Below, piece by piece: positions 4,834 through 31,231 of a stretch of 44,888 bases of DNA (the first letter of the stretch is position 1; every line of letters starts with the position of its first letter). Source of the DNA: Alphaproteobacteria bacterium (GTDB lineage: Bacteria > Pseudomonadota > Alphaproteobacteria > Caedimonadales > UBA9215). The translations under genes and the position numbers were made by a program. Under the pieces are notes generated by a model. It saw only the letters and a list, made by a program, of their open reading frames with translations. It made no database searches and had not been told where the DNA came from. Location: the NCBI GenBank assembly GCA_024280495.1, contig JAJRPZ010000022.1, positions 1 through 44,888 on the forward strand. The letters are read 5' to 3'.

Positions 4834-5712
4834 TTAGGGCCATTTGACTTCTGGGGGCATGGACATAAGAATGCCCTCCACATTGCCACCTGTTTTAAGA
4901 CCAAACGTGGTGCCTCTATCATATAACAGATTAAATTCCACATAACGACCACGGCGTACAAGAAGATGCTCACGTTCTTCTTGGGTCCAGGAGGTCATCA
5001 TACGACGGCGAACAATTTCAGGGTAGGCATTCAAAAAAGCACGGCCCACATCCTTTGTAAAGTCAAAGTCATCTTGTTTATTTTTCGTATCGAGGTAATC
5101 ATAAAAAATACCACCAATACCGCGGGGTTCATTGCGATGTTTTAAGAAAAAATACTCGTCACACCACTTTTTAAATTTGGGGTAATACTTTGGATCATGG
5201 GCATTGCAGGCTTTTTCATAGGCCAAATGAAATGTTTTATTATCTTGCTCGTGGGGAAAATAAGGAGTGAGGTCTCCCCCGCCACCAAACCAACTTTTTT
5301 CAGCGGTCACAATATGACGCGTATTCATGTGCACGGCAGGTACATGAGGGTTTTTCATATGTGCCACAAGGGAAATACCACTGGCCCAAAAGGACGGATC
5401 ATTTTCTGTTCCTGGAATTTGTTTTTTAAACTCATGGGAAAACTCACCATGAACCGTTGAAATATTCACACCGATTTTTTCAAAAACATTACCCTTCATC
5501 AGGCCAATAACACCTCCGCCTCCTTCTGAGCGATTCCATGGTGTAAGCTCGAATGTTCCAGGAGTTGAAAGTCCTTTTGCGACAGCGTATTCTTCTTCGA
5601 TTTTCTCAAAAGAGTGCACAATTTGGTCTCGTAAATTTTCAAACCACGCCGACGCACTATCTTTAAAATCAATAATTTGTTTGCTTTCTTCTTTTTTTAA
5701 AAGAGCTGTCAT
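4834..5712 (-). CDS. hemF: Oxygen-dependent coproporphyrinogen III oxidase
   Basis: 292 aa with HemF signatures: [32 protein letters not shown], and the C-terminal SMPPEVKW. Confidence 0.93.
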
Positions 5713-5744
5713 TTTTTACTCCTAAGTTTATTAATCCCATTAAG

Positions 5745-6197
5745 TCATCCCCTGGTTTGTCTCAGGGCCTCTCCCAAAACAAGGGCACCCGCAATGGCGA
5801 CATTCATAGAACGGGTTCCGTCACACATGGGGATAGTGAGCTGATGAGCGATTGTATCAGTAATATCAAGAGGAATACCATCGCTTTCACGCCCCAGCAA
5901 CAGTGTATCATTTTCTTTAAATTCAAAATCTAAATAAGATGTTTTTGCATGGGGAGAGAGATAGACAAGTCGACGTTTTTTTATTTGGCAATAGTCATTA
6001 AAGTGATCCCAGGAAAGATGGCGTTTATAATGGGCAAGATCTAAATAGTCCATACCAGCACGCTTTAGGCGTCTATCGCTGAGACCAAAACCACAAGGGT
6101 CAATGATATCAAGTGTAATCCCAAGGCAAGCAGCAGTGCGCAATAGAGTTCCTGTGTTTTGAGGAATTTCCGGTTGAAATTGAGCAAGATGAATCAT
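5745..6197 (-). CDS. trmL: SpoU/TrmL-type tRNA (cytidine/uridine-2'-O)-methyltransferase
   Basis: 150 aa, SPOUT fold size. Motifs NTGTLLRTAA, LLLGRESDG and SMNVAIAGALVLGE. Confidence 0.82.
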   Translation of the reverse strand: MIHLAQFQPEIPQNTGTLLRTAACLGITLDIIDPCGFGLSDRRLKRAGMDYLDLAHYKRHLSWDHFNDYCQIKKRRLVYLSPHAKTSYLDFEFKENDTLLLGRESDGIPLDITDTIAHQLTIPMCDGTRSMNVAIAGALVLGEALRQTRG

Positions 6198-11141: not shown

Positions 11142-11260
11142 TCTTTAAGTATAGATGATGAAAGACTCTTTGGTAAGATTTATTTTAAAGGGAAGTTACC
11201 CATTAAACAATGTGGGCCTGTTCGATTTTATAGGACCGCCTTTATAATTTATAGGTTTTT

Positions 11261-16538: not shown

Positions 16539-17087
16539 TTATTTTTTGATAGAAAGTTCTGGAGCGACAACCATCATCATTTGACGACCTTCCATTTTAG
16601 CGTGGGTTTCGATTTTAGCGACACCTTCTAAGTCATCAGTTACACGTTTCATGATTTTAAAACCGATTTCTTTATGGGCAATTTGACGGCCACGAAAACG
16701 CATTGAAAATTTAACTTTGTTGCCAGCATCCAAAAATTTGTGAGCAGATTTCATCTTGATTTGATAGTCATGATTCTCGATGGTGGGACCAAGTTTTAAT
16801 TCTTTAAGCTCAACGGTTTTTTGTTTTTTTCTTGCTTCTGCCAAGCGCTTTTGTTCTTGGTACTTGTATTTACCAAAGTCTGTTATTTTACAAACGGGTG
16901 GTTCGGCATTAGGAGAAACTTCAATCAAATCCAGACCAGAATCAAGAGCCTTTTCAAGGGCAACGGCAATAGGGTGGACTCCCAGCATTTCTCCAGCGTC
17001 ATCTAGAAGGCGGACTTCTTTTGCCGTAATTTCTTTATTAACGCGTGGACCTTTTTTCTTGGGGGACTTTTGGAAAGGGTTACGAAT
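16539..17087 (-). CDS. infC: Translation initiation factor IF-3, AUU start codon
   Basis: The track ORF (16539..16988) is N-terminally truncated. The frame stays open upstream and encodes (I)RNPFQKSPKKKGPRVNKEITAKEVRLLDDAGEMLGV, which is the conserved IF-3 N-domain. An in-frame TAA lies just upstream. AAGGAG sits 7 nt before ATT at 17085-17087. There is no ATG, GTG or TTG in that interval. Confidence 0.9.
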   Translation of the reverse strand: MRNPFQKSPKKKGPRVNKEITAKEVRLLDDAGEMLGVHPIAVALEKALDSGLDLIEVSPNAEPPVCKITDFGKYKYQEQKRLAEARKKQKTVELKELKLGPTIENHDYQIKMKSAHKFLDAGNKVKFSMRFRGRQIAHKEIGFKIMKRVTDDLEGVAKIETHAKMEGRQMMMVVAPELSIKK

Positions 17088-21225: not shown

Positions 21226-23499
21226 TTAAATCTTGGGTCTCTGAAATACACGTGTTTTAACACCAAATTCAGAGGCTTTTTTCTTAATATTAGGCGCCTT
21301 ATTTTCCTCACCTTTGAATTGTCCTTGAGCCCGCTCGAAACGGCGTTCTGCTTTCTTGGGTGGATTGTCAGCATTTCTTTTAAAAACAGGTCGTTTATAA
21401 GGATGCTTGCTGCCGTCACGATCTCCTTTTCCAAGGTCCGATGAAAATACGACACTACCAGAGATAGGATTGGAAAATTCAAGGGTGACATCAATTTCAT
21501 CCCCTAAATTCAAGCGCACATGAGAGCGTCTACCATAAAAACTCTGAGTTTTAGAATCATAGGTAAAATAGTCACCATTCAAATTACGCAAGGGTAAAAT
21601 ACCATCGGATTTGGTTTCAGACAACGTTAGGAAAATAGCAAATTCCGTCATGCCACTGACCACTGCTTTAAATGTTTCACCAAATCTATCTTCCAAATGC
21701 ATGGCAACATATCGATCAATGGTCTCTCGTTCAGCCTTTGTGGATCTACGTTCACATTCAGAGATTTGCTTGCCAATATCACTGAGAGTTTCATGGGTAT
21801 AGGGATATTCTTCAGGTTTTTTATCAATGATAGAACAGATAGCACGATGCACAAGTAAATCAGCATAGCGTCTAATGGGCGACGTAAAATGGGCATAGTG
21901 TGTGAGGTTTAAGCCAAAATGCCCTAGATTTTCTGGTTGATATTCGGCACGGCTTTGGCAACGCAGTACCATTTGATTAATCACGGGATACAAAGGATGC
22001 GCCACGACATTTCTTAAAATTTGAGTGAAATTGAGGGGGGTAATAATATTTCCCTTGGGGAGAGACGCGGGCAAATTTTGTATTTTAAGGTATTGCCCCA
22101 ACTCATCAGTTCGCTCTTCTGCAGGAGATTCGTGAACTCGAAATAAGCAAGGTTTTTTTTTATCAGTGATGAATTTTGCAGCAGATACATTGGCCAGGAC
22201 CATGAATTCTTCGATTAACTGATGGGTTTCTAAGCGGGGGCGTGGTTCTATTTTATCAATACCACCTTTATCCGTTAGAAAAATACGTTGCTCTGGCAAT
22301 TCGATTTCGAGGGTACCTCGTTTTTCACGGGCTTTTTTCAAAACCCCATAAGCGCCAAATAGGGCATCAATATAATTAGTATCAAATCCTTCTGGAAATC
22401 CATGCCCCTCTTTTTTATCATGGTAATTTTGAACGCCGATATAAGTTAATTTACCGTGGGAACGCATTAATCCTCTAAAGAAATCTTGGGATAGCAATTT
22501 ACCTGATTTAGAAATACGCATCCAAACGGCCAAACAAGGACGATCTTCATGGGGACGTAACGAACAAAGATCATTGGAGAGACGTTCTGGTAACATGGGC
22601 ACAACCCGATCTGGAAAATAAGTCGAATTTCCACGGGTAATGGCTTCTTTATCAAGGGCTGACCCTGGCGTGACAAAATAGGATACATCGGCAATGGCCA
22701 CAAGCAAACGCCATCCTCCTTTGTTCCTTTCATCTGTATCGGGTTCCGCATAAACCGCATCATCATGATCACGTGCATCCATATCATCAATGGTCACGAG
22801 AGGAATATCACGTAAATCAGTACGCCTCTCAAGTTCCGTTGGAAGAATTGCCTTTTCGCTTTGATCAATAACTGACTCTGGAAAACTGTCAGGAATTTCA
22901 TAACGTTTAATGGCAAGCATCGATAATTGACGAACGAGCCCTTCTCTTGTTGACAGGACTTCCTTTAAAATCACGAGACCTTTTGCATCTTTTAATCTTT
23001 TTCCATCAGAGGATTTCGCACGACCTTTGGAGATATAGGCTTTTACATAATCTCCAAGTTCAGCCTTTAAATTCTTGATGGATTTTTCATCAACAACATA
23101 AAGGGTGCGGTCTTTACGATCCAAAGGTGCCAGCAATGTACGCCGCTTTTCCCTTTGAAGAATACCCAAAATCACTGAGTTATCGGCGGGCTTCTCAAGG
23201 GTAACCCCAGGGGTGTCTATTTTAGAAACAATCTTTTTTTCTATGGAATTTTTTTCAGCAGGCGCGTCACCGGAAACCCAATAAGACTTTCCTTTTTTCA
23301 GTAGAGTTTCTTGATGCACCATCTCTGAGAGCAATTGTTTTAGGCGACGGCGTGCTGTTTCTCCCTTGATATGAAAGAATTTTGCAATATCGCGACGCAA
23401 AGTTTCTGGGCGCCCTGTTTTTTCGCTATTGGTTCGTAAAAAATCAACGAGAGCCTCGGGAGAAGGAATGTTGTGAGGCGCGTGGTCTGAATGTGTCAA
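21226..23499 (-). CDS. rnr: Ribonuclease R
   Basis: 757 aa. RNB catalytic domain (IDDMDARDHDDAVY, STYFPDRVVPMLPE, HFGLNLTHYAHFTSPIRRYADLLVHR), a C-terminal S1 domain and a basic Lys/Arg tail. Confidence 0.93.
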   Translation of the reverse strand: MTHSDHAPHNIPSPEALVDFLRTNSEKTGRPETLRRDIAKFFHIKGETARRRLKQLLSEMVHQETLLKKGKSYWVSGDAPAEKNSIEKKIVSKIDTPGVTLEKPADNSVILGILQREKRRTLLAPLDRKDRTLYVVDEKSIKNLKAELGDYVKAYISKGRAKSSDGKRLKDAKGLVILKEVLSTREGLVRQLSMLAIKRYEIPDSFPESVIDQSEKAILPTELERRTDLRDIPLVTIDDMDARDHDDAVYAEPDTDERNKGGWRLLVAIADVSYFVTPGSALDKEAITRGNSTYFPDRVVPMLPERLSNDLCSLRPHEDRPCLAVWMRISKSGKLLSQDFFRGLMRSHGKLTYIGVQNYHDKKEGHGFPEGFDTNYIDALFGAYGVLKKAREKRGTLEIELPEQRIFLTDKGGIDKIEPRPRLETHQLIEEFMVLANVSAAKFITDKKKPCLFRVHESPAEERTDELGQYLKIQNLPASLPKGNIITPLNFTQILRNVVAHPLYPVINQMVLRCQSRAEYQPENLGHFGLNLTHYAHFTSPIRRYADLLVHRAICSIIDKKPEEYPYTHETLSDIGKQISECERRSTKAERETIDRYVAMHLEDRFGETFKAVVSGMTEFAIFLTLSETKSDGILPLRNLNGDYFTYDSKTQSFYGRRSHVRLNLGDEIDVTLEFSNPISGSVVFSSDLGKGDRDGSKHPYKRPVFKRNADNPPKKAERRFERAQGQFKGEENKAPNIKKKASEFGVKTRVFQRPKI

Positions 23500-23643
23500 A
23501 TGAAATAATCCTATAAATTCACCTCACAATACGCACCTAGGCTCAAAAACTCAAGTTTTATAAAGAACCAGCATTTACAAAAAGCTTATTTTTGATCAGA
23601 ATAGAGGACGCATTAACCAACATAACACTAGGAGAGACTCACT

Positions 23644-25158
23644 ATGACAATGAAAAACCTCAAGGTTCAATTTCTTAAAGAAGCAACAAACACTGATGTT
23701 GCTATTGTTGTGGGCGTTTTTTCTGGCAAAGAACTTAGTTCTGCGGCGCAATTTTTGAATGATACGACCCATGGTCTTTTAAAAACCGCCATGGACACCA
23801 ATCACTTCAAGGGAAAAATTGGAGACGTTTTAAGTATCGTTGCGCCAAATGATCTTAAGGTTCGTCGTATTATTTTAGCTGGATTTGGCAAAAAAGAAGG
23901 ATTTTCTCAAAAAACCCTTCAAGACATTGGTGGTCATATTTATGGTGCCCTTGCTGCAACCCCTGATAAAGAAGCCGTTTTCCACCTCAGCGATCTTTCC
24001 GAAGGATCTTTGAGTAAAGGTGATGTCGCTGCTATGCTCGCATCAGGAACATTGCTTCGTTCGTGGCATTTTAATAAATATATGACCAAGCAAAAAGAAG
24101 AAGACCTCCCTCAGCTAGAAACACTCACTGTCATTACCGAAGATCCAGAGAGTGCCGAAAAAGCTTTCATTCCCCTAAAAGCCCAAGCTGATGGTGTGTT
24201 TTTATGCCGTGAAGTGGCAACGGAACCTTGTAATATTATCTATCCTGAATCCTATGCAGATAAAATTAAGGATGAGCTAAAGCCTTTGAATGTTGATATT
24301 GATGTTCTCAATGAAAAAGACATGAAAAAATTAGGCATGGGGTGTCTTTTGGGTGTAGGGCAAGGAAGCCGTAAAGAATCACGTCTTGTTGTCATGAAAT
24401 GGAATGGGGGGCCTTCTGACCAGCAACCCGTTGCCTTTGTTGGTAAGGGAGTGACATTTGATACGGGTGGTATCAGCCTTAAGCCAGGCCTGAATATGCA
24501 TGAAATGAAATACGATATGGCAGGGTCTGCAGCGGTTGTTGGTCTCATGAAAACTCTGGCTGCCCGTAAGGCAAAAGTAAATGTTGTTGCCGTCGTTGGT
24601 CTCGTTGAAAATATGCCAGATGGCGATGCCATACGCCCAGGGGATGTTTTAACGTCCATGTCTGGTCAAACCGTTGAGGTTCTTAATACCGATGCCGAAG
24701 GACGTTTGGTTTTGTGTGATGCCCTTTGGTACACACAAGAAAAATTCAACCCTCAGTTTATGATTAACCTCGCAACTCTAACGGGCGCCATTACCATTGC
24801 CCTTGGGGATTTACATGGAGGGCTTTTTTCAAATAACGATGAGCTTTGCGATCGCTTGAAAGATTCTGCCCATAAATCAGGGGATGCTTTGTGGCGTTTG
24901 CCCATGACCGAAGATTATAATAAATTGTTGAAATCCCCTGTGGCTGATATGCAAAACATCAGCAATGGTCGCATGGCAGGTAGCATCACTGCAGCTCAAT
25001 TCCTAGAACGCTTTGTTAACGATGTGCCGTGGGCGCACCTTGATATCGCAGGGACTGCCTGGATTGATAATCGTCAACTGCCAACATCTGCCAAGGGTGC
25101 CACTGGTTACGGTGTGCGTCTTTTGGACCAGCTCATCAAAGATCATTACGAGGCCTAG
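23644..25158 (+). CDS. pepA: Leucyl aminopeptidase (M17)
   Basis: VGKGVTFDTGGISLKP, MKYDMAGSAAV and the NTDAEGRLVLCDAL signature. Confidence 0.95.
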   Translation: MTMKNLKVQFLKEATNTDVAIVVGVFSGKELSSAAQFLNDTTHGLLKTAMDTNHFKGKIGDVLSIVAPNDLKVRRIILAGFGKKEGFSQKTLQDIGGHIYGALAATPDKEAVFHLSDLSEGSLSKGDVAAMLASGTLLRSWHFNKYMTKQKEEDLPQLETLTVITEDPESAEKAFIPLKAQADGVFLCREVATEPCNIIYPESYADKIKDELKPLNVDIDVLNEKDMKKLGMGCLLGVGQGSRKESRLVVMKWNGGPSDQQPVAFVGKGVTFDTGGISLKPGLNMHEMKYDMAGSAAVVGLMKTLAARKAKVNVVAVVGLVENMPDGDAIRPGDVLTSMSGQTVEVLNTDAEGRLVLCDALWYTQEKFNPQFMINLATLTGAITIALGDLHGGLFSNNDELCDRLKDSAHKSGDALWRLPMTEDYNKLLKSPVADMQNISNGRMAGSITAAQFLERFVNDVPWAHLDIAGTAWIDNRQLPTSAKGATGYGVRLLDQLIKDHYEA

Positions 25159-25215
25159 AAAACGTTCTTTGAAAAGCGTAATATAATAGTGGTAAACAAA
25201 AAAATAGGAAAAAAA

Positions 25216-25584
25216 ATGACTGAAACAATCTATGATAAACTAGGTGGGGCCCCTGCAATGGATGCAGCCGTTGATATTTTTTATCGAAAAGTTTTAAGTG
25301 ATGATCGCATCTCAGAATTTTTTGACGGCATAGATATGGACAAACAGCGCTCCAAGCAGAAAGCATTTTTAACAATGGCCTTTGGCGGTCCTAACAAGTA
25401 TACAGGACAAGATATGCGCGAGGGACACAAACACCTTGTTGCAAAAGGTCTGAACGACATGCATTTTGATGCCGTTGTTGAAAATCTAGCCACAACACTG
25501 TCGGAACTCGGTATCAGTGATGCCCTAATCTCAGAAGTGGCAGCAGTTGCTGAAACAACACGTAAAGACATTTTGAATCGTTAA
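25216..25584 (+). CDS. glbN: Group I (N-type) truncated haemoglobin
   Basis: MTETIYDKLGG, Phe-Tyr (B9-B10) in DIFYRKVL, FGGPNKYTG, and proximal His in REGHKHL. Aligns along its length with my recollection of M. tuberculosis trHbN. ATG at 25216 with AGGA 6 nt upstream; the track start at 25189 is a GTG. Confidence 0.88.
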   Translation: MTETIYDKLGGAPAMDAAVDIFYRKVLSDDRISEFFDGIDMDKQRSKQKAFLTMAFGGPNKYTGQDMREGHKHLVAKGLNDMHFDAVVENLATTLSELGISDALISEVAAVAETTRKDILNR

Positions 25585-25587
25585 TTT

Positions 25588-26622
25588 ATGACCAAAATAA
25601 CTTATAAAAATCAAAAACTCTCCTTGAAAGAGGATCAAACTGTTTTGAACGCCCTCCTTGAAGGAGGGTATTCTATTTCCCATGCTTGCGAACAAGGAGT
25701 GTGCCAGAGTTGTATCCTCAAAGCATCTCCTTCCAATGATTTGCCGAAAACGTCACAAATAGGATTAAAATCAACTCAACAAGAGCAAGGTTATTTTCTC
25801 AGCTGCCTTTGTAAACCAACCACCGATCTTGAAATAACAGACGCCGAGGATTTGGGAGTGAAATTTCAAGGAGAAATAATATCAACCCTAAAATTAACCC
25901 CTTCTGTTTATGCTCTACGATTAAAAATTGAGGGAGATTTTCCTTATAAAGCTGGTCAATATATAAATCTCATTAGACCCTCCGACCAAACCATCCGAAG
26001 CTATTCCCTTGCCAGCATTTATGATAAAAATTCTTACCAACAAAAATACACTGAAATTGAACTTCATATTAAAGCTTTCCCTGGAGGGGAAATGTCAAGT
26101 TGGTTATGCAGTGATATAAAAGCTCCAACACAAATTACTGGCCCCATGGGAGACTGCTTTTATAGTTCTTCTTTTAAAGGTAATGATCTTTTGCTCTTGG
26201 GTTGGGGAACGGGACTTGCCCCCCTTTACGGTATATTACAAGAAGCTCTTTCATCGGGACATAAGGGTAATATCCACCTTTACCATTGGGGAAATGAACC
26301 TGAAGACCTTTATTTTCAAAAAGAAATCAATATCATTACGGATCAAAATTCCCATGTTTTTTATAAAGCAGGCCTTCAGTGTGAAAATAAAATAAAAAAT
26401 CTAAAAAATTTAATGTTTGGTGATGCATGCGCCCTTATTCAAAAGGAAATTCCTTCCTTAAAGGATTGGAAAATTTTCTTGTGCGGTAGCGAAGCAAAAG
26501 TGAATAAAGCACGTCGTATTTTTTACCTTTCGGGGGCTGACCTTTCTGATATTTATGCAGATGCTTTTTTTACATGGCAAATTCCAGAATCAACCCCAAA
26601 AGAAGAAAAAATAACTGGCTAA
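25588..26622 (+). CDS. Ferredoxin-NAD(P)H reductase-type oxidoreductase: N-terminal plant-type 2Fe-2S ferredoxin domain plus FAD/NAD(P)-binding domain
   Basis: Cys pattern C-x4-C-x2-C...C (ACEQGVCQSC ... LSCLC), flavin motif IRSYSLAS (RxYS), nucleotide motif LLGWGTGLAP, and a C-terminal FLCGS motif. Its ATG lies 3 nt after the glbN stop. Confidence 0.85.
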   Translation: MTKITYKNQKLSLKEDQTVLNALLEGGYSISHACEQGVCQSCILKASPSNDLPKTSQIGLKSTQQEQGYFLSCLCKPTTDLEITDAEDLGVKFQGEIISTLKLTPSVYALRLKIEGDFPYKAGQYINLIRPSDQTIRSYSLASIYDKNSYQQKYTEIELHIKAFPGGEMSSWLCSDIKAPTQITGPMGDCFYSSSFKGNDLLLLGWGTGLAPLYGILQEALSSGHKGNIHLYHWGNEPEDLYFQKEINIITDQNSHVFYKAGLQCENKIKNLKNLMFGDACALIQKEIPSLKDWKIFLCGSEAKVNKARRIFYLSGADLSDIYADAFFTWQIPESTPKEEKITG

Positions 26623-26651
26623 TTTTATGGGTCAAGAAATAGAAAGAGCAC

Positions 26652-27140
26652 ATGTCAGATACACCTAGTCCTACCCTCGAAATTAGTTTTTACCAAATAA
26701 CTCAAGGCTCCCTTGAAAAAAGTGTGGCTAAATTATTGGAAAAAGTTTACGAAGCAGGTATGAAAAGCGTTTTAAAAGTGGGCTCTACTGAAAGTCTTGA
26801 CTCTTATAACAAGCTCCTTTGGACCTTTAGCTCATTTGCGTTCTTACCTCACAGTGCAAAGGGAGACAAATTTAAAGCAAATCGCCAACCCCTTTATTTA
26901 TCAACGGATATTGAAAATCCAAACAAAGCAACAGTTCTAGCCACCGTTGATGGCACTCAATTGGAGTCAGATTCTGAGGGTATGTCAAATTTCAAAAGAT
27001 GCCTTGACATTTTTAATGGTCACGATGATGATGCCGTTACAAAGGCGCGCTCCCGCTGGAAATATTACAAAACCAAGGGATACGTCTTAACCTATTGGAA
27101 ACAAGATGAAAAAGGACGATGGGCAAAGCAAAATATCTAG
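26652..27140 (+). CDS. holC: DNA polymerase III subunit chi
   Basis: 162 aa. N-terminal pattern FYQIT...[21 protein letters not shown]...LWTF...FLPH matches HolC. Located in the pepA neighbourhood. Confidence 0.78.
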
Positions 27141-27187
27141 CTGACGCGTTACATCATCTTTTTCATCATTATATAAAGGATACCACC

Positions 27188-27610
27188 ATGACAATGGAAA
27201 AAACTTTTTCTATTTTAAAACCAGATGCAACACGTCGCAATTTAACGGGTGCAATCAACGCTCTGATCGAGAAATCTGGCCTTAAAATTATCGCACAAAA
27301 ACGCATACATATGTCAAAAGCTCAGGCAGAAACATTTTATGGAGTGCACAGTGAACGTGCTTTTTTTAACGATCTTGTTGAATTTATGATATCAGGACCT
27401 GTTGTTGTCCAAGTTCTCGAGGGCGAAAATGCCGTTGTTGCTTACCGTGACATTATGGGTGCAACAAATCCAGAAAATGCTGAAGTTGGCACAATTCGTA
27501 AAGAATTTGCAGAATCCATCGAAGCAAATTCTGTTCATGGCTCTGATTCCCTTGAAAATGCAACCATTGAAATGGCATACTTTTTCAGCGGAACTGAACT
27601 GGTAGGCTAA
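27188..27610 (+). CDS. ndk: Nucleoside diphosphate kinase
   Basis: [11 protein letters not shown], the active-site region NSVHGSDS, and YFF near the C-terminus. ATG at 27188 with AAGGA upstream gives the canonical 140 aa. The track start at 27119 overlaps holC and adds a non-homologous extension. Confidence 0.95.
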
Positions 27611-27641
27611 TATAATCAATTCAAAAAATAGGAAGGTTATT

Positions 27642-28796
27642 ATGAGACTTCACTTAAGAACAATCATGACTTGTTTTTTTATCTCTGTATCCTTCTTGTT
27701 TTCTTTGTTAAATGAATTAAATGCCACCATTCAAGTTGATAATATCAAGGTTGATATTGAATCCACAAGTGGTCTCATGGCACGTAACCTCGCCATTGCA
27801 GAGGCCAGGCGCAAAGCTTTTCGACAAATCATAGAAACAACCCCGTCCCTTAATTATAATATAGATAAACGAGGAATGCCATCGGATGCAGCCCTTGAAA
27901 ATGCCATGGATACATTCGAAGTTGAGAAAGAAAAAATTCTTTCTAAACGGTATATTGGCACCCTTTCCATTACATTTTCAGATGTTGGCATGGACCACAT
28001 TTTTTCTGATAATGTTGGCCCCATAGCCCCCGCAAAAAAAATCTCGAATAAATCTGTAAAAATGAAGGTGGATTCTCCCTTTATCCGTGACGTTCTTTTT
28101 GTACCAGCATTCATCACGCCTGATGAATCTCTGTTATGGACCTCCAATATTTGGCGTACTTTTTGGCAACAAAATCAAAATAATGATGTTTTTAAAGTCC
28201 TCGTCCCCCTTGGCGATATTAAAGATATCATGTCGACCTCCATCGAAGATTTCATGACAGGGGATGCCCTAAAAGTGATGGCTTTGTTGAAACGTTACCA
28301 AAAAGATCAGTTGATTTTTGCTTCCCTCCGCCGTCTTTCATATGAGCATAATGAAATGGAATTGCGCGTTAAAATATTCAAGGAAAGTCGCCAAATTTTC
28401 TCAAGCCAACCTATTTTTATCAATGGCACAACAACAGAAGAAGCCTTCAAAGCAGCCTCCCTTGAAATTGGCCGTCTTGTTCAAGACATGGATTTTTCAA
28501 AAGCAAATATGCAAAACATGGCCCTTCAAACCATAGAATTAACGGCAACTTTTAAAGGTTTTGTTCAATGGCAAAAAATTCGTAATACATTGAAAATACC
28601 TGAAATTCATAAATTTAGAATTTCCAGACTTTCACGTAAATCTGCACAAATTAATATTAGAACAGCCTTATCAACAAAAGATCTTGCCAATGCCTTTGCT
28701 CGAAATGGCCTTAATTTTCAAGAAGGGTTTCCTGGAAAATTCAGCCTCTCTATTAATACAACAGAACTATATACCCCAAAGGGTTTTTCACAATGA
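27642..28796 (+). CDS. Hypothetical exported protein (384 aa, N-terminal signal sequence)
   Basis: Long ORF with a hydrophobic N-terminus (MTCFFISVSFLFSLLNELNA). No recognisable motifs. Its stop overlaps the start of the next gene (ATGA at 28793-28796). Confidence 0.6.
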   Translation: MRLHLRTIMTCFFISVSFLFSLLNELNATIQVDNIKVDIESTSGLMARNLAIAEARRKAFRQIIETTPSLNYNIDKRGMPSDAALENAMDTFEVEKEKILSKRYIGTLSITFSDVGMDHIFSDNVGPIAPAKKISNKSVKMKVDSPFIRDVLFVPAFITPDESLLWTSNIWRTFWQQNQNNDVFKVLVPLGDIKDIMSTSIEDFMTGDALKVMALLKRYQKDQLIFASLRRLSYEHNEMELRVKIFKESRQIFSSQPIFINGTTTEEAFKAASLEIGRLVQDMDFSKANMQNMALQTIELTATFKGFVQWQKIRNTLKIPEIHKFRISRLSRKSAQINIRTALSTKDLANAFARNGLNFQEGFPGKFSLSINTTELYTPKGFSQ

Positions 28797-29356
28797 CGGT
28801 TTCCATGATGACCCTTCCCAATTTTATCAGCATTTTTCGTCTCCTCCTTGTGCCAATTGTTGTATGGGCTTTGGTGGATTTGCATTATAGCTATGCCCTT
28901 TTGGGTTTCTTTATTGCAGGAATTTCTGATTTACTTGACGGTTTTTTAGCTCGTGCCATGAAATGTCAAACGGATCTTGGCCGTTATCTTGATCCTCTTG
29001 CGGATAAAGTCCTCCTTATTGCCGTTTATGTTACCCTTGGTATGCAAGGGATTCTCCCTTCTTGGCTTGTTATTCTTGTTGTCTTTAGAGATTTTCTAAT
29101 TCTCTCAGGCGCCCTCCTTGTAAAACTTTTTAATCTTTCCCTTGAAATAAAACCTCTTTTTATTAGTAAAGCCAATACCTTAATGCAACTTTTACTTGTG
29201 GGAATTATCCTCATAGAACTTTCCATTGAGCAGATATATCCCACAACTAATGTTTTTTTGTTTATACTAACTGGATTAATAACCTTTTTATCAGGTGCAA
29301 GTTATGTCAAAAAATGGTTCAGTAGCACCAACGACCAAAATGACACAAGGCCCTAA
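28793..29356 (+). CDS. CDP-alcohol phosphatidyltransferase family protein (PgsA-type or CDP-alcohol-type cardiolipin synthase)
   Basis: Signature D-x2-DG-x2-AR-x8-G-x3-D-x3-D is present as SDLLDGFLARAMKCQTDLGRYLDPLADK. 187 aa and polytopic. Confidence 0.85.
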   Translation: MTVSMMTLPNFISIFRLLLVPIVVWALVDLHYSYALLGFFIAGISDLLDGFLARAMKCQTDLGRYLDPLADKVLLIAVYVTLGMQGILPSWLVILVVFRDFLILSGALLVKLFNLSLEIKPLFISKANTLMQLLLVGIILIELSIEQIYPTTNVFLFILTGLITFLSGASYVKKWFSSTNDQNDTRP

Positions 29357-30488
29357 GGATGATTTAGTTGATTTTAAAATCAAGAAATCTTCTTTAAAAA
29401 CATCCCTGTGGGTCATCATTGGCCTTGGATTTTCAGGCTTTTTTTTCCACCTTTTTGCCCCCATTTTAATGCCGTTTTTGGTAGCATTGATTTTTGCATA
29501 TGCCCTTAACCCTGTTGTTGAACGTTTGCAAAATTGGGGATTGAACCGTTCAGCGGCGACATTTTTATTAGTCCTAAGCGCCTTATCTCTTATTGTGGGT
29601 GTTCTTTTTATTGCCATACCCTTTTTACGGGATGAACTTACAAAGCTCACAACCACTTTACCCAAATATATGACCGATGTTGCGACCTATTACACACCGC
29701 AAATTAAAATTTTTATGTCTCAATTTTCTGAAAATATATCTGGGCGCCTTGAAACTACCCTCACGGACCATGCTTCAAATATGCTCAGATGGAGCCTTAG
29801 TCTGATGACAGGAATTTTTACCAACACTCTTGCCCTTGCTAACATTGTTTCCTTGATTATTTTGTCGCCCTTACTTATTTTCTACTTATTGCGGGATTGG
29901 CCTCTTATTTTAGGGACTCTCCATAAACTTATTCCACCAACCATGACGAAAAAAACCATGAATCTTATTGATCAACTCAATGAAACTTTAAATGGCTATT
30001 TTAGAGGCCAAGCCGCCGTTTGCCTTTTGATGGCTGCGTATTACACAACGGGCCTTTATATCATTGGCCTTGATTACGCCTTTACCGTCGGTATTATTAG
30101 CGGTCTTTTGACATTTATGCCCTATGTCGGTTTTTTAACAGGGCTTGTGGCAGCAGTAGGCGTAGCCCTCGTTCAATTTACTGGTTACAGTGAGGTTATC
30201 CTCATTGCTGGTCTCTATGGCCTTGGAAATGTTTTTGAAGGATTTATTTTAGTGCCACGGCTTGTGGGAAGTAAAATCGGTCTTCACCCAATATGGCTTA
30301 TATTTGCACTCCTAGGCGGGGGGTTTCTCTTTGGATTTCTGGGTATTCTTTTAGCCATTCCCCTTGCTGCTGTTGTTGCCGTTTTTGTACGATTTGGTGT
30401 GAGTCGTTATCACAGCCATTTACAAGAAATTTCACCCCAGAAAAAATCAAAAATAGATGTCAAAAAGAAAAGAAAAAATAGCACATGA
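29304..30488 (+). CDS. AI-2E/PerM-family membrane transporter
   Basis: About 390-aa polytopic protein with the family-typical C-terminal half (FRGQAAVCLLMAAYY...PRLVGSKIGLHPIWLIFALLGGG). Start is uncertain: GTG 29295, ATG 29304 (AGGTG upstream) or ATG 29340. Confidence 0.78.
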   Translation: MSKNGSVAPTTKMTQGPKDDLVDFKIKKSSLKTSLWVIIGLGFSGFFFHLFAPILMPFLVALIFAYALNPVVERLQNWGLNRSAATFLLVLSALSLIVGVLFIAIPFLRDELTKLTTTLPKYMTDVATYYTPQIKIFMSQFSENISGRLETTLTDHASNMLRWSLSLMTGIFTNTLALANIVSLIILSPLLIFYLLRDWPLILGTLHKLIPPTMTKKTMNLIDQLNETLNGYFRGQAAVCLLMAAYYTTGLYIIGLDYAFTVGIISGLLTFMPYVGFLTGLVAAVGVALVQFTGYSEVILIAGLYGLGNVFEGFILVPRLVGSKIGLHPIWLIFALLGGGFLFGFLGILLAIPLAAVVAVFVRFGVSRYHSHLQEISPQKKSKIDVKKKRKNST

Positions 30489-31231
30489 AAAACCTCAAAG
30501 ACACCTCCTTAAAAGAGCCTGTTTTTACAGAACCAGAGCGCCCTCATAAAGTCAAAATGGGTTCAGAAACACAAATTGTTCAAATGGCTTTGGATATTTC
30601 TTTAGATCCGATTTATCGTTGGGAAAATTTTTATATTTCCTCCAGTAATGACGACGCAATATCTCTTTTGCAGCGTTGGCCCCAGTGGGAGCACCGTGTT
30701 CAATTGATTTATGGCCAAAGCGGTAGTGGTAAAACCCATATTGCTCACCTTTGGCGCAATGGAAATCGTGCTTCCTTTGTGGATGATAGCGTTTTAAAAC
30801 TTGATTTTCTCGAAGAATATGTGGCACAAAATCCTTTTTTAATTGTGGATGATGCGGATCGAATCACCTGTCATAAAGGTCTTTTCCACCTTTATAACCT
30901 TATTCAAGAATACCAAGGATATTTGCTTCTCACGTCTAAATATCCAAGTAATCAATGGAATATTGAACTGCCCGATTTGGCTTCAAGACTCCAGAGTATT
31001 CCAGCAACGGAAATATTAGCCCCCGACGACAACTTACTGCGTGCCCTTCTCATTAAGGGTTTTTCAGATCTGCAACTTAAAATTCCTGAAAATGTTTTGA
31101 ATTATATTATCAAACATATGGAACGATCATATGAGGGAGTCCAATACACAACGGCCCTTTTAAATAGGCGTTCCCTTGAAATGAAACGTAATTTAACCCT
31201 CCCTTTAGTCAAAGAAATTTTGAATATATAG
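30485..31231 (+). CDS. hdaA: DnaA regulatory inactivator Hda/HdaA (DnaA-related AAA+)
   Basis: Walker A GQSGSGKTHIAHLW, Walker B-like FLIVDDADR, about 240 aa, and an N-terminal QMALDISL...WENF motif typical of Hda. ATGA overlap with the upstream permease gene. Confidence 0.78.
   Translation: MKNLKDTSLKEPVFTEPERPHKVKMGSETQIVQMALDISLDPIYRWENFYISSSNDDAISLLQRWPQWEHRVQLIYGQSGSGKTHIAHLWRNGNRASFVDDSVLKLDFLEEYVAQNPFLIVDDADRITCHKGLFHLYNLIQEYQGYLLLTSKYPSNQWNIELPDLASRLQSIPATEILAPDDNLLRALLIKGFSDLQLKIPENVLNYIIKHMERSYEGVQYTTALLNRRSLEMKRNLTLPLVKEILNI

Follow-up and report, generated by a model that had tools for sequence, protein, structure and literature searches.

A truncated haemoglobin gene and an adjacent three-domain reductase gene between pepA and holC of an alphaproteobacterium as a predicted two-component nitric-oxide dioxygenase

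The in vivo reductant of truncated haemoglobins (trHbs) is a long-standing gap, and re-reduction is considered to set the limit on the nitric oxide (NO) dioxygenase activity of these proteins in cells (PMC2323109, PMC3820574). The closest described system is the gene pair glbN-lpg2536 of Legionella pneumophila, which Rodionov et al. described in 2005 as NsrR-controlled and proposed to oxidise NO like the flavohaemoglobin Hmp (PMC1274295), and which Gardner cited in 2012 as evidence that ferredoxin reductases are the electron donors of trHbs (PMC3820574). Here we describe a pair of this kind, glbN and fdr, in a stretch of 44,888 nucleotides (nt) from an alphaproteobacterium (contig JAJRPZ010000022.1 of assembly GCA_024280495.1; the whole stretch is called the window below, and coordinates are collected in Table 1). 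We propose that the pair encodes a two-component NO dioxygenase, with a probability of roughly 70%. A first-pass annotation of the window had considered a truncated globin hard-wired to its own reductase not to be a standard described arrangement; as the reports of 2005 and 2012 make clear, the idea was already known, and the window pair is a new member of a known, computationally predicted kind, in an unusual location and with the usual regulator missing.

As in Legionella, a gene for a group 1 trHb (a 'cyanoglobin') and a ferredoxin-reductase gene behind it make up a bicistronic unit, lpg2536 being likened to fdr by its description, and the association with an NsrR gene and operator described for Legionella is seen again at about half of the homologous loci that we surveyed. 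The window copy differs in that it has neither an NsrR operator nor a nearby Rrf2 gene and lies inside a string of housekeeping genes. With Hmp, the pair is predicted to share the route of electrons from NAD(P)H through flavin to haem and the reaction of the oxygenated haem with NO to give nitrate. The FAD/NAD module of Hmp belongs to the same FNR-like superfamily, and the Hmp structures 1gvh, 4g1b and 6o0a are among the fold matches of the fdr product. However, Hmp joins a 3-on-3 globin to its reductase in one polypeptide and lacks an iron-sulfur cluster, whereas the window encodes two polypeptides with a 2-on-2 globin and an additional [2Fe-2S] cluster, and judged by its sequence the pair is not a member of the Hmp family.

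The domain order, cofactor motifs and fold of the window reductase are the same as those of GcoB (5ogx), BenC (1krh), T4moF (4wqm) and CarAd (7c3a), but the partner is a globin in place of the Rieske, di-iron or P450 oxygenase served by that class. GcoB, which bears the annotation cytochrome P450 reductase, hands its electrons straight to the haem of its partner, the P450 GcoA, and by analogy would be a precedent for a three-domain reductase that reduces a haem partner directly. A globin and a reductase encoded as separate genes of one operon and acting in NO detoxification are also known from Bradyrhizobium (Bjgb and Flp, in narK-bjgb-flp-nasC). Compared by description with the window pair, Bjgb is a 3-on-3 single-domain haemoglobin, its flavoprotein is a different one, and the operon is one of nitrate assimilation. 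Bjgb has also been the subject of a paper of its own (PMC6965051).

The 122-amino-acid product of glbN is encoded by an intact open reading frame (ORF), begins with MTETIYDKLGG and matches the Pfam family Bac_globin over profile positions 1 to 120 of 121 (E = 2.7e-19; 70 bits, cut-off 21). Among solved structures, those nearest to it are of Synechocystis GlbN and of Tetrahymena trHbN (E of about 4e-39). When helix positions were assigned by alignment to 1s69 and 2hz2, the pocket residues were F22 and Y23 (B9 and B10), Q44 (E7), K47 (E10), Q48 (E11) and H71 (F8), each of which is the same residue in 24 of 24 aligned homologues. The hinge Gly-Gly motifs G10-G11 (AB) and G57-G58 (EF) are likewise invariant in the 24 homologues, and the GGP..YTG motif occupies residues 57 to 64. 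By profile and key residues the protein is thus assigned to the group 1 (N-type) truncated haemoglobins (trHbN). It has 70-76% identity to gammaproteobacterial proteins named 'group 1 truncated hemoglobin' and 83-88% identity to its closest relatives, one of which is named 'group 1 truncated hemoglobin [Holosporales bacterium]', and it is a member of a very conserved trHbN clade.

The product of fdr matches the Pfam families Fer2 (2e-9), FAD_binding_6 (4e-8) and NAD_binding_1 (3e-7), all above their cut-offs. It carries the cluster motif C34-x4-C39-x2-C42...C73, the flavin motif R137-S-Y-S140 and the nucleotide motif G207-T-G-L-A-P212. No variation is seen across 19 reductase homologues in the four cluster cysteines, RxYS or GLAP; among the motif residues, G207 and T208 are the exceptions. 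An AlphaFold2 model of the reductase has a predicted local distance difference test score (pLDDT) of 90.3, and the folds nearest to it are those of GcoB, CarAd, T4moF and BenC (E from 1e-23 to 3e-28), with sequence identities of 19-24% in the fold alignments. Scores against the NCBIfam equivalog models are PRK05713 127 (cut-off 338), BenC 101 (430), MmoC 95.5 (500) and AntC 52 (402), and the Hmp model PRK13289 gives 46.9 against a cut-off of 432 with its FAD/NAD part alone aligned. Because it falls far under every one of these equivalog cut-offs, the protein is classified here as having the BenC/GcoB architecture without being one of those enzymes. The first-pass annotation had described an N-type globin of 122 residues (with IYDKLGG, Phe-Tyr at B9-B10, GGP..YTG and a proximal His) and a reductase of 344 residues with plant-type 2Fe-2S, RxYS and GxGxxP motifs; all of these features are found in the two proteins, and the profile searches it had called for (Bac_globin, Fer2, FAD_binding_6 and NAD_binding_1) all gave matches above the cut-offs.

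The evidence for coupling comes from gene order. Genomes were surveyed by a pattern-limited scan with one genome per GTDB species, in which at least 595 genomes encode a relative of the reductase, and gene order was counted at the best 80 reductase loci of that scan. A trHbN gene lies directly upstream of the reductase gene and on the same strand in 79 of the 80, and the lineages represented include Myxococcota, Zetaproteobacteria, Methylococcales, Acidobacteriota, Phycisphaerae, Hydrogenedentota, Sumerlaeota and Burkholderiales. At the lone exception (L073, reductase homologue at 4935-5975) there is no globin gene, and the upstream side holds a porin-like ORF of 404 amino acids and a 400-nt gap. 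For the converse test, the best 80 relatives of the globin in metagenomes were taken. Of these, 71 could be scored because 300 nt or more of sequence follow the globin gene, and in 63 of the 71 the reductase gene is directly downstream. Since the genes that surround the pair change from lineage to lineage, the pair travels as a unit. Distance matrices of the globin and the reductase are correlated (r = 0.38, about 130 paired sequences), and none of 500 permutations gave a value as high. Opposite-strand 'families' (c3, c4 and c6) that arose from crude ORF calling in high-GC loci were spurious and were disregarded. The view of the first-pass annotation that globin and reductase form a coupled unit is strongly supported by these counts.

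Seven of the eight metagenome exceptions are arrays of two or three tandem trHbN genes to which the reductase gene is not adjacent (L100, L117, L128, L131, L135, L162 and L163), and the eighth (L125) has a single globin gene. In Zetaproteobacteria/Mariprofundus and related loci, two tandem trHbN genes precede one reductase gene at distances of about 100-700 nt, usually together with a divergent Rrf2 gene (L010, L021, L023, L028, L029, L034, L045, L052, L063, L083 and L084). Two Methylocystis plasmids (L170, NZ_CP044330.1, and L172, NZ_CP046053.1) carry the pair beside a gene for an RNA polymerase sigma factor of the ECF type; they show that the pair can be plasmid-borne (one plasmid was typed as mobilizable) and present another swap of regulator.

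Plasmids annotated in RefSeq also mark where the globin-linked clade ends. Reductase homologues with 36% and 32% identity to the window protein (Methylocystis) adjoin a gene named 'group 1 truncated hemoglobin', and homologues with 28.5-28.7% identity have naphthalene dioxygenase genes or CopA/CueR as neighbours. The edge of the clade falls between those identities, and below about 30% the reductases have other partners. This bears on the possibility that fdr serves an oxygenase or some other acceptor, as BenC-, AscD- or NahAa-like reductases do, and that its adjacency to a globin gene is incidental. The domain architecture and fold are indeed the same as in oxygenase reductases, and some sources automatically annotate the homologues as 'CDP-4-dehydro-6-deoxyglucose reductase'. 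Yet the adjacency to a globin gene (79/80 and 63/71) extends over unrelated genomic contexts, the scores are far under the cut-offs for BenC, MmoC and AntC, no oxygenase or AscC-type genes flank the pair in the window, and oxygenase-linked homologues are confined to 29% identity or less. The neighbourhood survey effectively refutes an oxygenase partner, which we regard as most improbable. The first-pass annotation had named a grouping with oxygenase-coupled reductases and a lack of linkage to globins as the outcome that would speak against its reading; the clade is linked to globins and not to oxygenases.

The link to NO comes mainly from the regulators and operators found beside homologous pairs. 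A gene of the Rrf2 family adjoins the pair, either divergently upstream or directly downstream, at 38 of 84 loci around the reductase (the 80 genome-scan loci, L001-L006 and the window, with the duplicates L002/L007 dropped) and at 39 of the 71 metagenome loci. The neighbouring Rrf2 proteins are above the cut-off of the Rrf2 superfamily. A match to the NsrR operator AAGATGYATTTNAAATRCATCTT with at most five mismatches is present within 200 nt upstream of the globin gene at 78 of 159 loci, one of which matches perfectly, whereas a match this good is seen in none of 690 control windows taken from these loci. We favour NsrR over RirA as the identity of these regulators because the canonical NsrR operator motif lies upstream of the globin gene, and the module is therefore a regular member of the NsrR regulon. 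The NsrR operators together with the Tyr-B10/Gln-E7/Gln-E11 pocket support a role in NO detoxification, and the NsrR-like genes and operators at about half of the loci fit the comparison drawn in the first-pass annotation, which had read the pair as the parts list of a flavohaemoglobin-style NO dioxygenase.

In the mechanism that we propose, the reductase would take a hydride from NAD(P)H onto flavin adenine dinucleotide (FAD), and its N-terminal [2Fe-2S] domain would relay the electrons one at a time to the ferric haem of the trHb. Once ferrous, the globin would bind O2, stabilised by Tyr-B10, Gln-E7 and Gln-E11, and the bound O2 would react with NO to form nitrate and leave a ferric haem that the reductase would recycle. 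Both ORFs are intact and have the full set of cofactor motifs; direct electron transfer from reductase to globin and NO as the physiological substrate are inferred.

Several points weigh against this reading. For NsrR and for RirA the neighbouring Rrf2 proteins have equal scores, which lie below both equivalog cut-offs. Upstream of glbN in the window, the best match to the NsrR consensus has 9 mismatches in 23 positions, which is the background level, and no Rrf2 or HTH_3 homologues were found in a search of the whole window (45 kb), so that in the window the link to NO is one of homology alone. The close relatives of the window are similar in this respect, with best operator matches of 8-10 mismatches, again equal to background. 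Almost any haemoglobin dioxygenates NO in vitro (PMC2323109), and globin chemistry on its own is therefore not diagnostic. In the searchable literature, which leaves most subscription journals outside, we found no experiments on any member of the pair. Two further matches to the NsrR site elsewhere in the window (a half-site-like match with 5 mismatches at 11175 and one with 6 mismatches at 16695) were judged to be noise, and papers on Acinetobacter baumannii (PMC11836069) and Ferrigenium concern other proteins.

A different chemistry for a coupled pair has to be weighed here, namely that its main reaction is not aerobic NO dioxygenation but nitrite or NO reduction at low O2, a peroxidase activity or the scavenging of peroxynitrite, or buffering or sensing of O2 by a haem that the reductase keeps ferrous. 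The coupling is seen in gene order, while the chemistry of the pair is predicted. Lys-E10 is invariant in the globin homologues; in Chlamydomonas THB1 this residue ligates the haem, which may point to gated haem coordination. Many of the hosts are microaerophiles (for example Zetaproteobacteria, Gallionellaceae and methanotrophs), and the regulator beside the pair is not NsrR but an ECF sigma factor on the Methylocystis plasmids and an HTH_3 protein in Holosporales-like genomes. Peroxidase activity is also on record for a different bacterial trHb (PMC4319818). The set Tyr-B10/Gln-E7/Gln-E11, on the other hand, is the same as in trHbNs that show NO-dioxygenase activity, and the NsrR operator at about half of the loci ties the module specifically to NO or nitrite stress. 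We consider these other chemistries unlikely and keep the two-component NO dioxygenase as the preferred reading.

At the locus itself (Table 1), the glbN stop codon TAA (25582-25584) is followed by TTT and the fdr ATG at 25588, a junction of 3 nt that was read off directly and agrees with the first-pass annotation. There is no recognisable Shine-Dalgarno sequence for the reductase at this junction, and the 3-nt spacing suggests translational coupling; across homologous loci the gap between glbN and the reductase gene is mostly 3-60 nt. The two genes also share a reading frame, and read-through of the single TAA would yield a globin-reductase fusion. This same-frame junction is probably a coincidence, because the spacing in relatives differs (15-22 nt).

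Table 1. Coordinates, strands and supporting evidence for the globin-reductase pair, its flanking features in the window, and the HTH_3 genes that precede the cassette at related loci
Feature	Position	Strand	Basis
glbN, group 1 (N-type) truncated haemoglobin, 122 amino acids	25216..25584	+	Pfam Bac_globin
fdr, three-domain reductase ([2Fe-2S] ferredoxin N-terminal, FAD-binding, NAD(P)H-binding), 344 amino acids	25588..26622	+	Pfam
Gene junction TAA-TTT-ATG, 3-nt gap	25582..25590	+	read from sequence
pepA-glbN spacer, 57 nt, TATAAT and AGGA motif	25159..25215	+	sequence
pepA (leucyl aminopeptidase), left flank	23644..25158	+	Peptidase_M17 1.8e-126; NF002077 676 bits (cut-off 471)
holC (DNA polymerase III chi), right flank	26652..27140	+	DNA_pol3_chi 9e-28; NF004347 140.7 bits (cut-off 132)
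HTH_3 genes ahead of the cassette in relatives	L001:4701-5510, L004:6707-7492, L005:6934-7755, L006:1508-2320		

The profile matches of the flanking genes confirm the placement of the pair between pepA and holC that the first-pass annotation had given. The genes pepA, glbN, fdr, holC and ndk, which follows holC, all run in one direction, and 29 nt separate the fdr stop from holC. The spacer upstream of glbN contains a Shine-Dalgarno-like AGGA (25205-25208) and, at 25182-25187, the TATAAT from which the first-pass annotation had argued for a promoter of the cassette's own. The hexamer is there, but it carries no evidential weight, because it occurs at chance frequency (45 copies in the whole window against 37 expected) and the promoter scan called no sigma-70-type site at this position, nor any promoter elsewhere in the 57-nt spacer. 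The terminator scan likewise gave no terminator-like sites in the gaps of 57, 3 and 29 nt from pepA to holC. With the NsrR operator missing and no terminator on either side, the cassette is probably transcribed by read-through with the pepA-holC-ndk housekeeping string. The mechanically called ndk ORF (27119-27610, 163 amino acids, start at 27119) overlaps holC; Ndk of the relatives has 140 amino acids, so the window ndk probably starts at the ATG at 27188.

The pair lies in a block of 10 kb (21226-31231 in the window; RNB exoribonuclease on the minus strand, pepA, holC, ndk, DUF2066, CDP-OH phosphatidyltransferase, AI-2E transporter and Hda) that is syntenic with three close relatives (L087, L088 from assembly GCA_024281375.1, and L089), the cassette being the sole difference. 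In each of these relatives pepA runs right up to holC or overlaps it (ATGA, TAATG), and this comparison of loci bears out the insertion into a housekeeping block that the first-pass annotation had suggested. Assembly GCA_024281375.1 carries the cassette on a different contig, downstream of an HTH_3 gene encoding about 265 amino acids, and in a TARA relative that shares its sample with L087 the cassette likewise follows an HTH_3 gene. The HTH_3 (XRE-type) protein, whose gene precedes the cassette in every one of the closest relatives (L001, L004, L005 and L006), has an uncharacterised C-terminal half, and it may have taken over from NsrR as the regulator.

Between the window and its relatives, identity is 83-84% for the globin and 58-65% for the reductase, compared with 39-84% for neighbouring housekeeping genes. 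Because the divergence of the cassette is within the range of the housekeeping genes, relocation is favoured over import, and the cassette is most likely native to the lineage, moved from its ancestral site after the HTH_3 gene into the pepA/holC overlap. A foreign origin of an accessory module is not borne out, the cassette being as similar to that of the relatives as the housekeeping genes are. Composition gives no sign of it either (the GC content of the cassette, 0.36-0.41, is the same as that of the flanks), and candidate flanking repeats or scars of mobile elements were short matches at chance level. A 'CCTAG' is common to both insertion junctions and is too short to interpret.

In the relatives, an apparent terminator hairpin of the HTH_3 gene and then a GATAAT lie upstream of the cassette, and the 57-nt spacer of the window aligns weakly with this region. 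A search of the window gave no homologues of the ancestral neighbours (Rrf2, HTH_3, SDR, histidine kinase and two hypothetical genes). The N-terminus of HolC in the window (26652-26700) is longer than the MADISFYQ of the relatives (compared at L087:5001 and L088:~4707), and the extension was apparently created by the cassette insertion.

We also weighed whether the insertion could be the product of a chimeric assembly, or else a relic that is no longer expressed and is decaying in a reduced genome. The contig apparently stems from a metagenome assembly, and the regulator and operator known from other loci are missing. Against this, both ORFs are full length and keep all invariant residues, the cassette has the composition of its flanks, the junctions are clean, co-directional and short (57 and 29 nt), and the identities of both proteins to the relatives fall within the housekeeping range. 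Both possibilities are therefore judged highly unlikely, and we read the locus as a genuine relocation of an intact pair.

What the window adds is modest: another lineage that carries the pair, a clear case of its two genes moving together and an instance of regulator loss. For the family as a whole, one large conserved clade of trHbNs is almost always paired with one specific three-domain reductase, often behind an NsrR operator, which makes this clade an obvious experimental system. The host is an alphaproteobacterium close to metagenome-assembled genomes labelled Holosporales. As a broader proposal, which we advance tentatively and consider possible rather than probable, an NO-defence module ancestrally switched by NsrR would have been uncoupled from its sensor in a Holosporales-like, presumably intracellular lineage and, in the genome of the window, spliced precisely into the overlap of pepA and holC, where it would be made constitutively along with the housekeeping genes as an adaptation to the permanent NO of a host; more broadly, the reductase clade would be the physiological donor of electrons that has long been sought for N-type trHbs in bacteria of many phyla.

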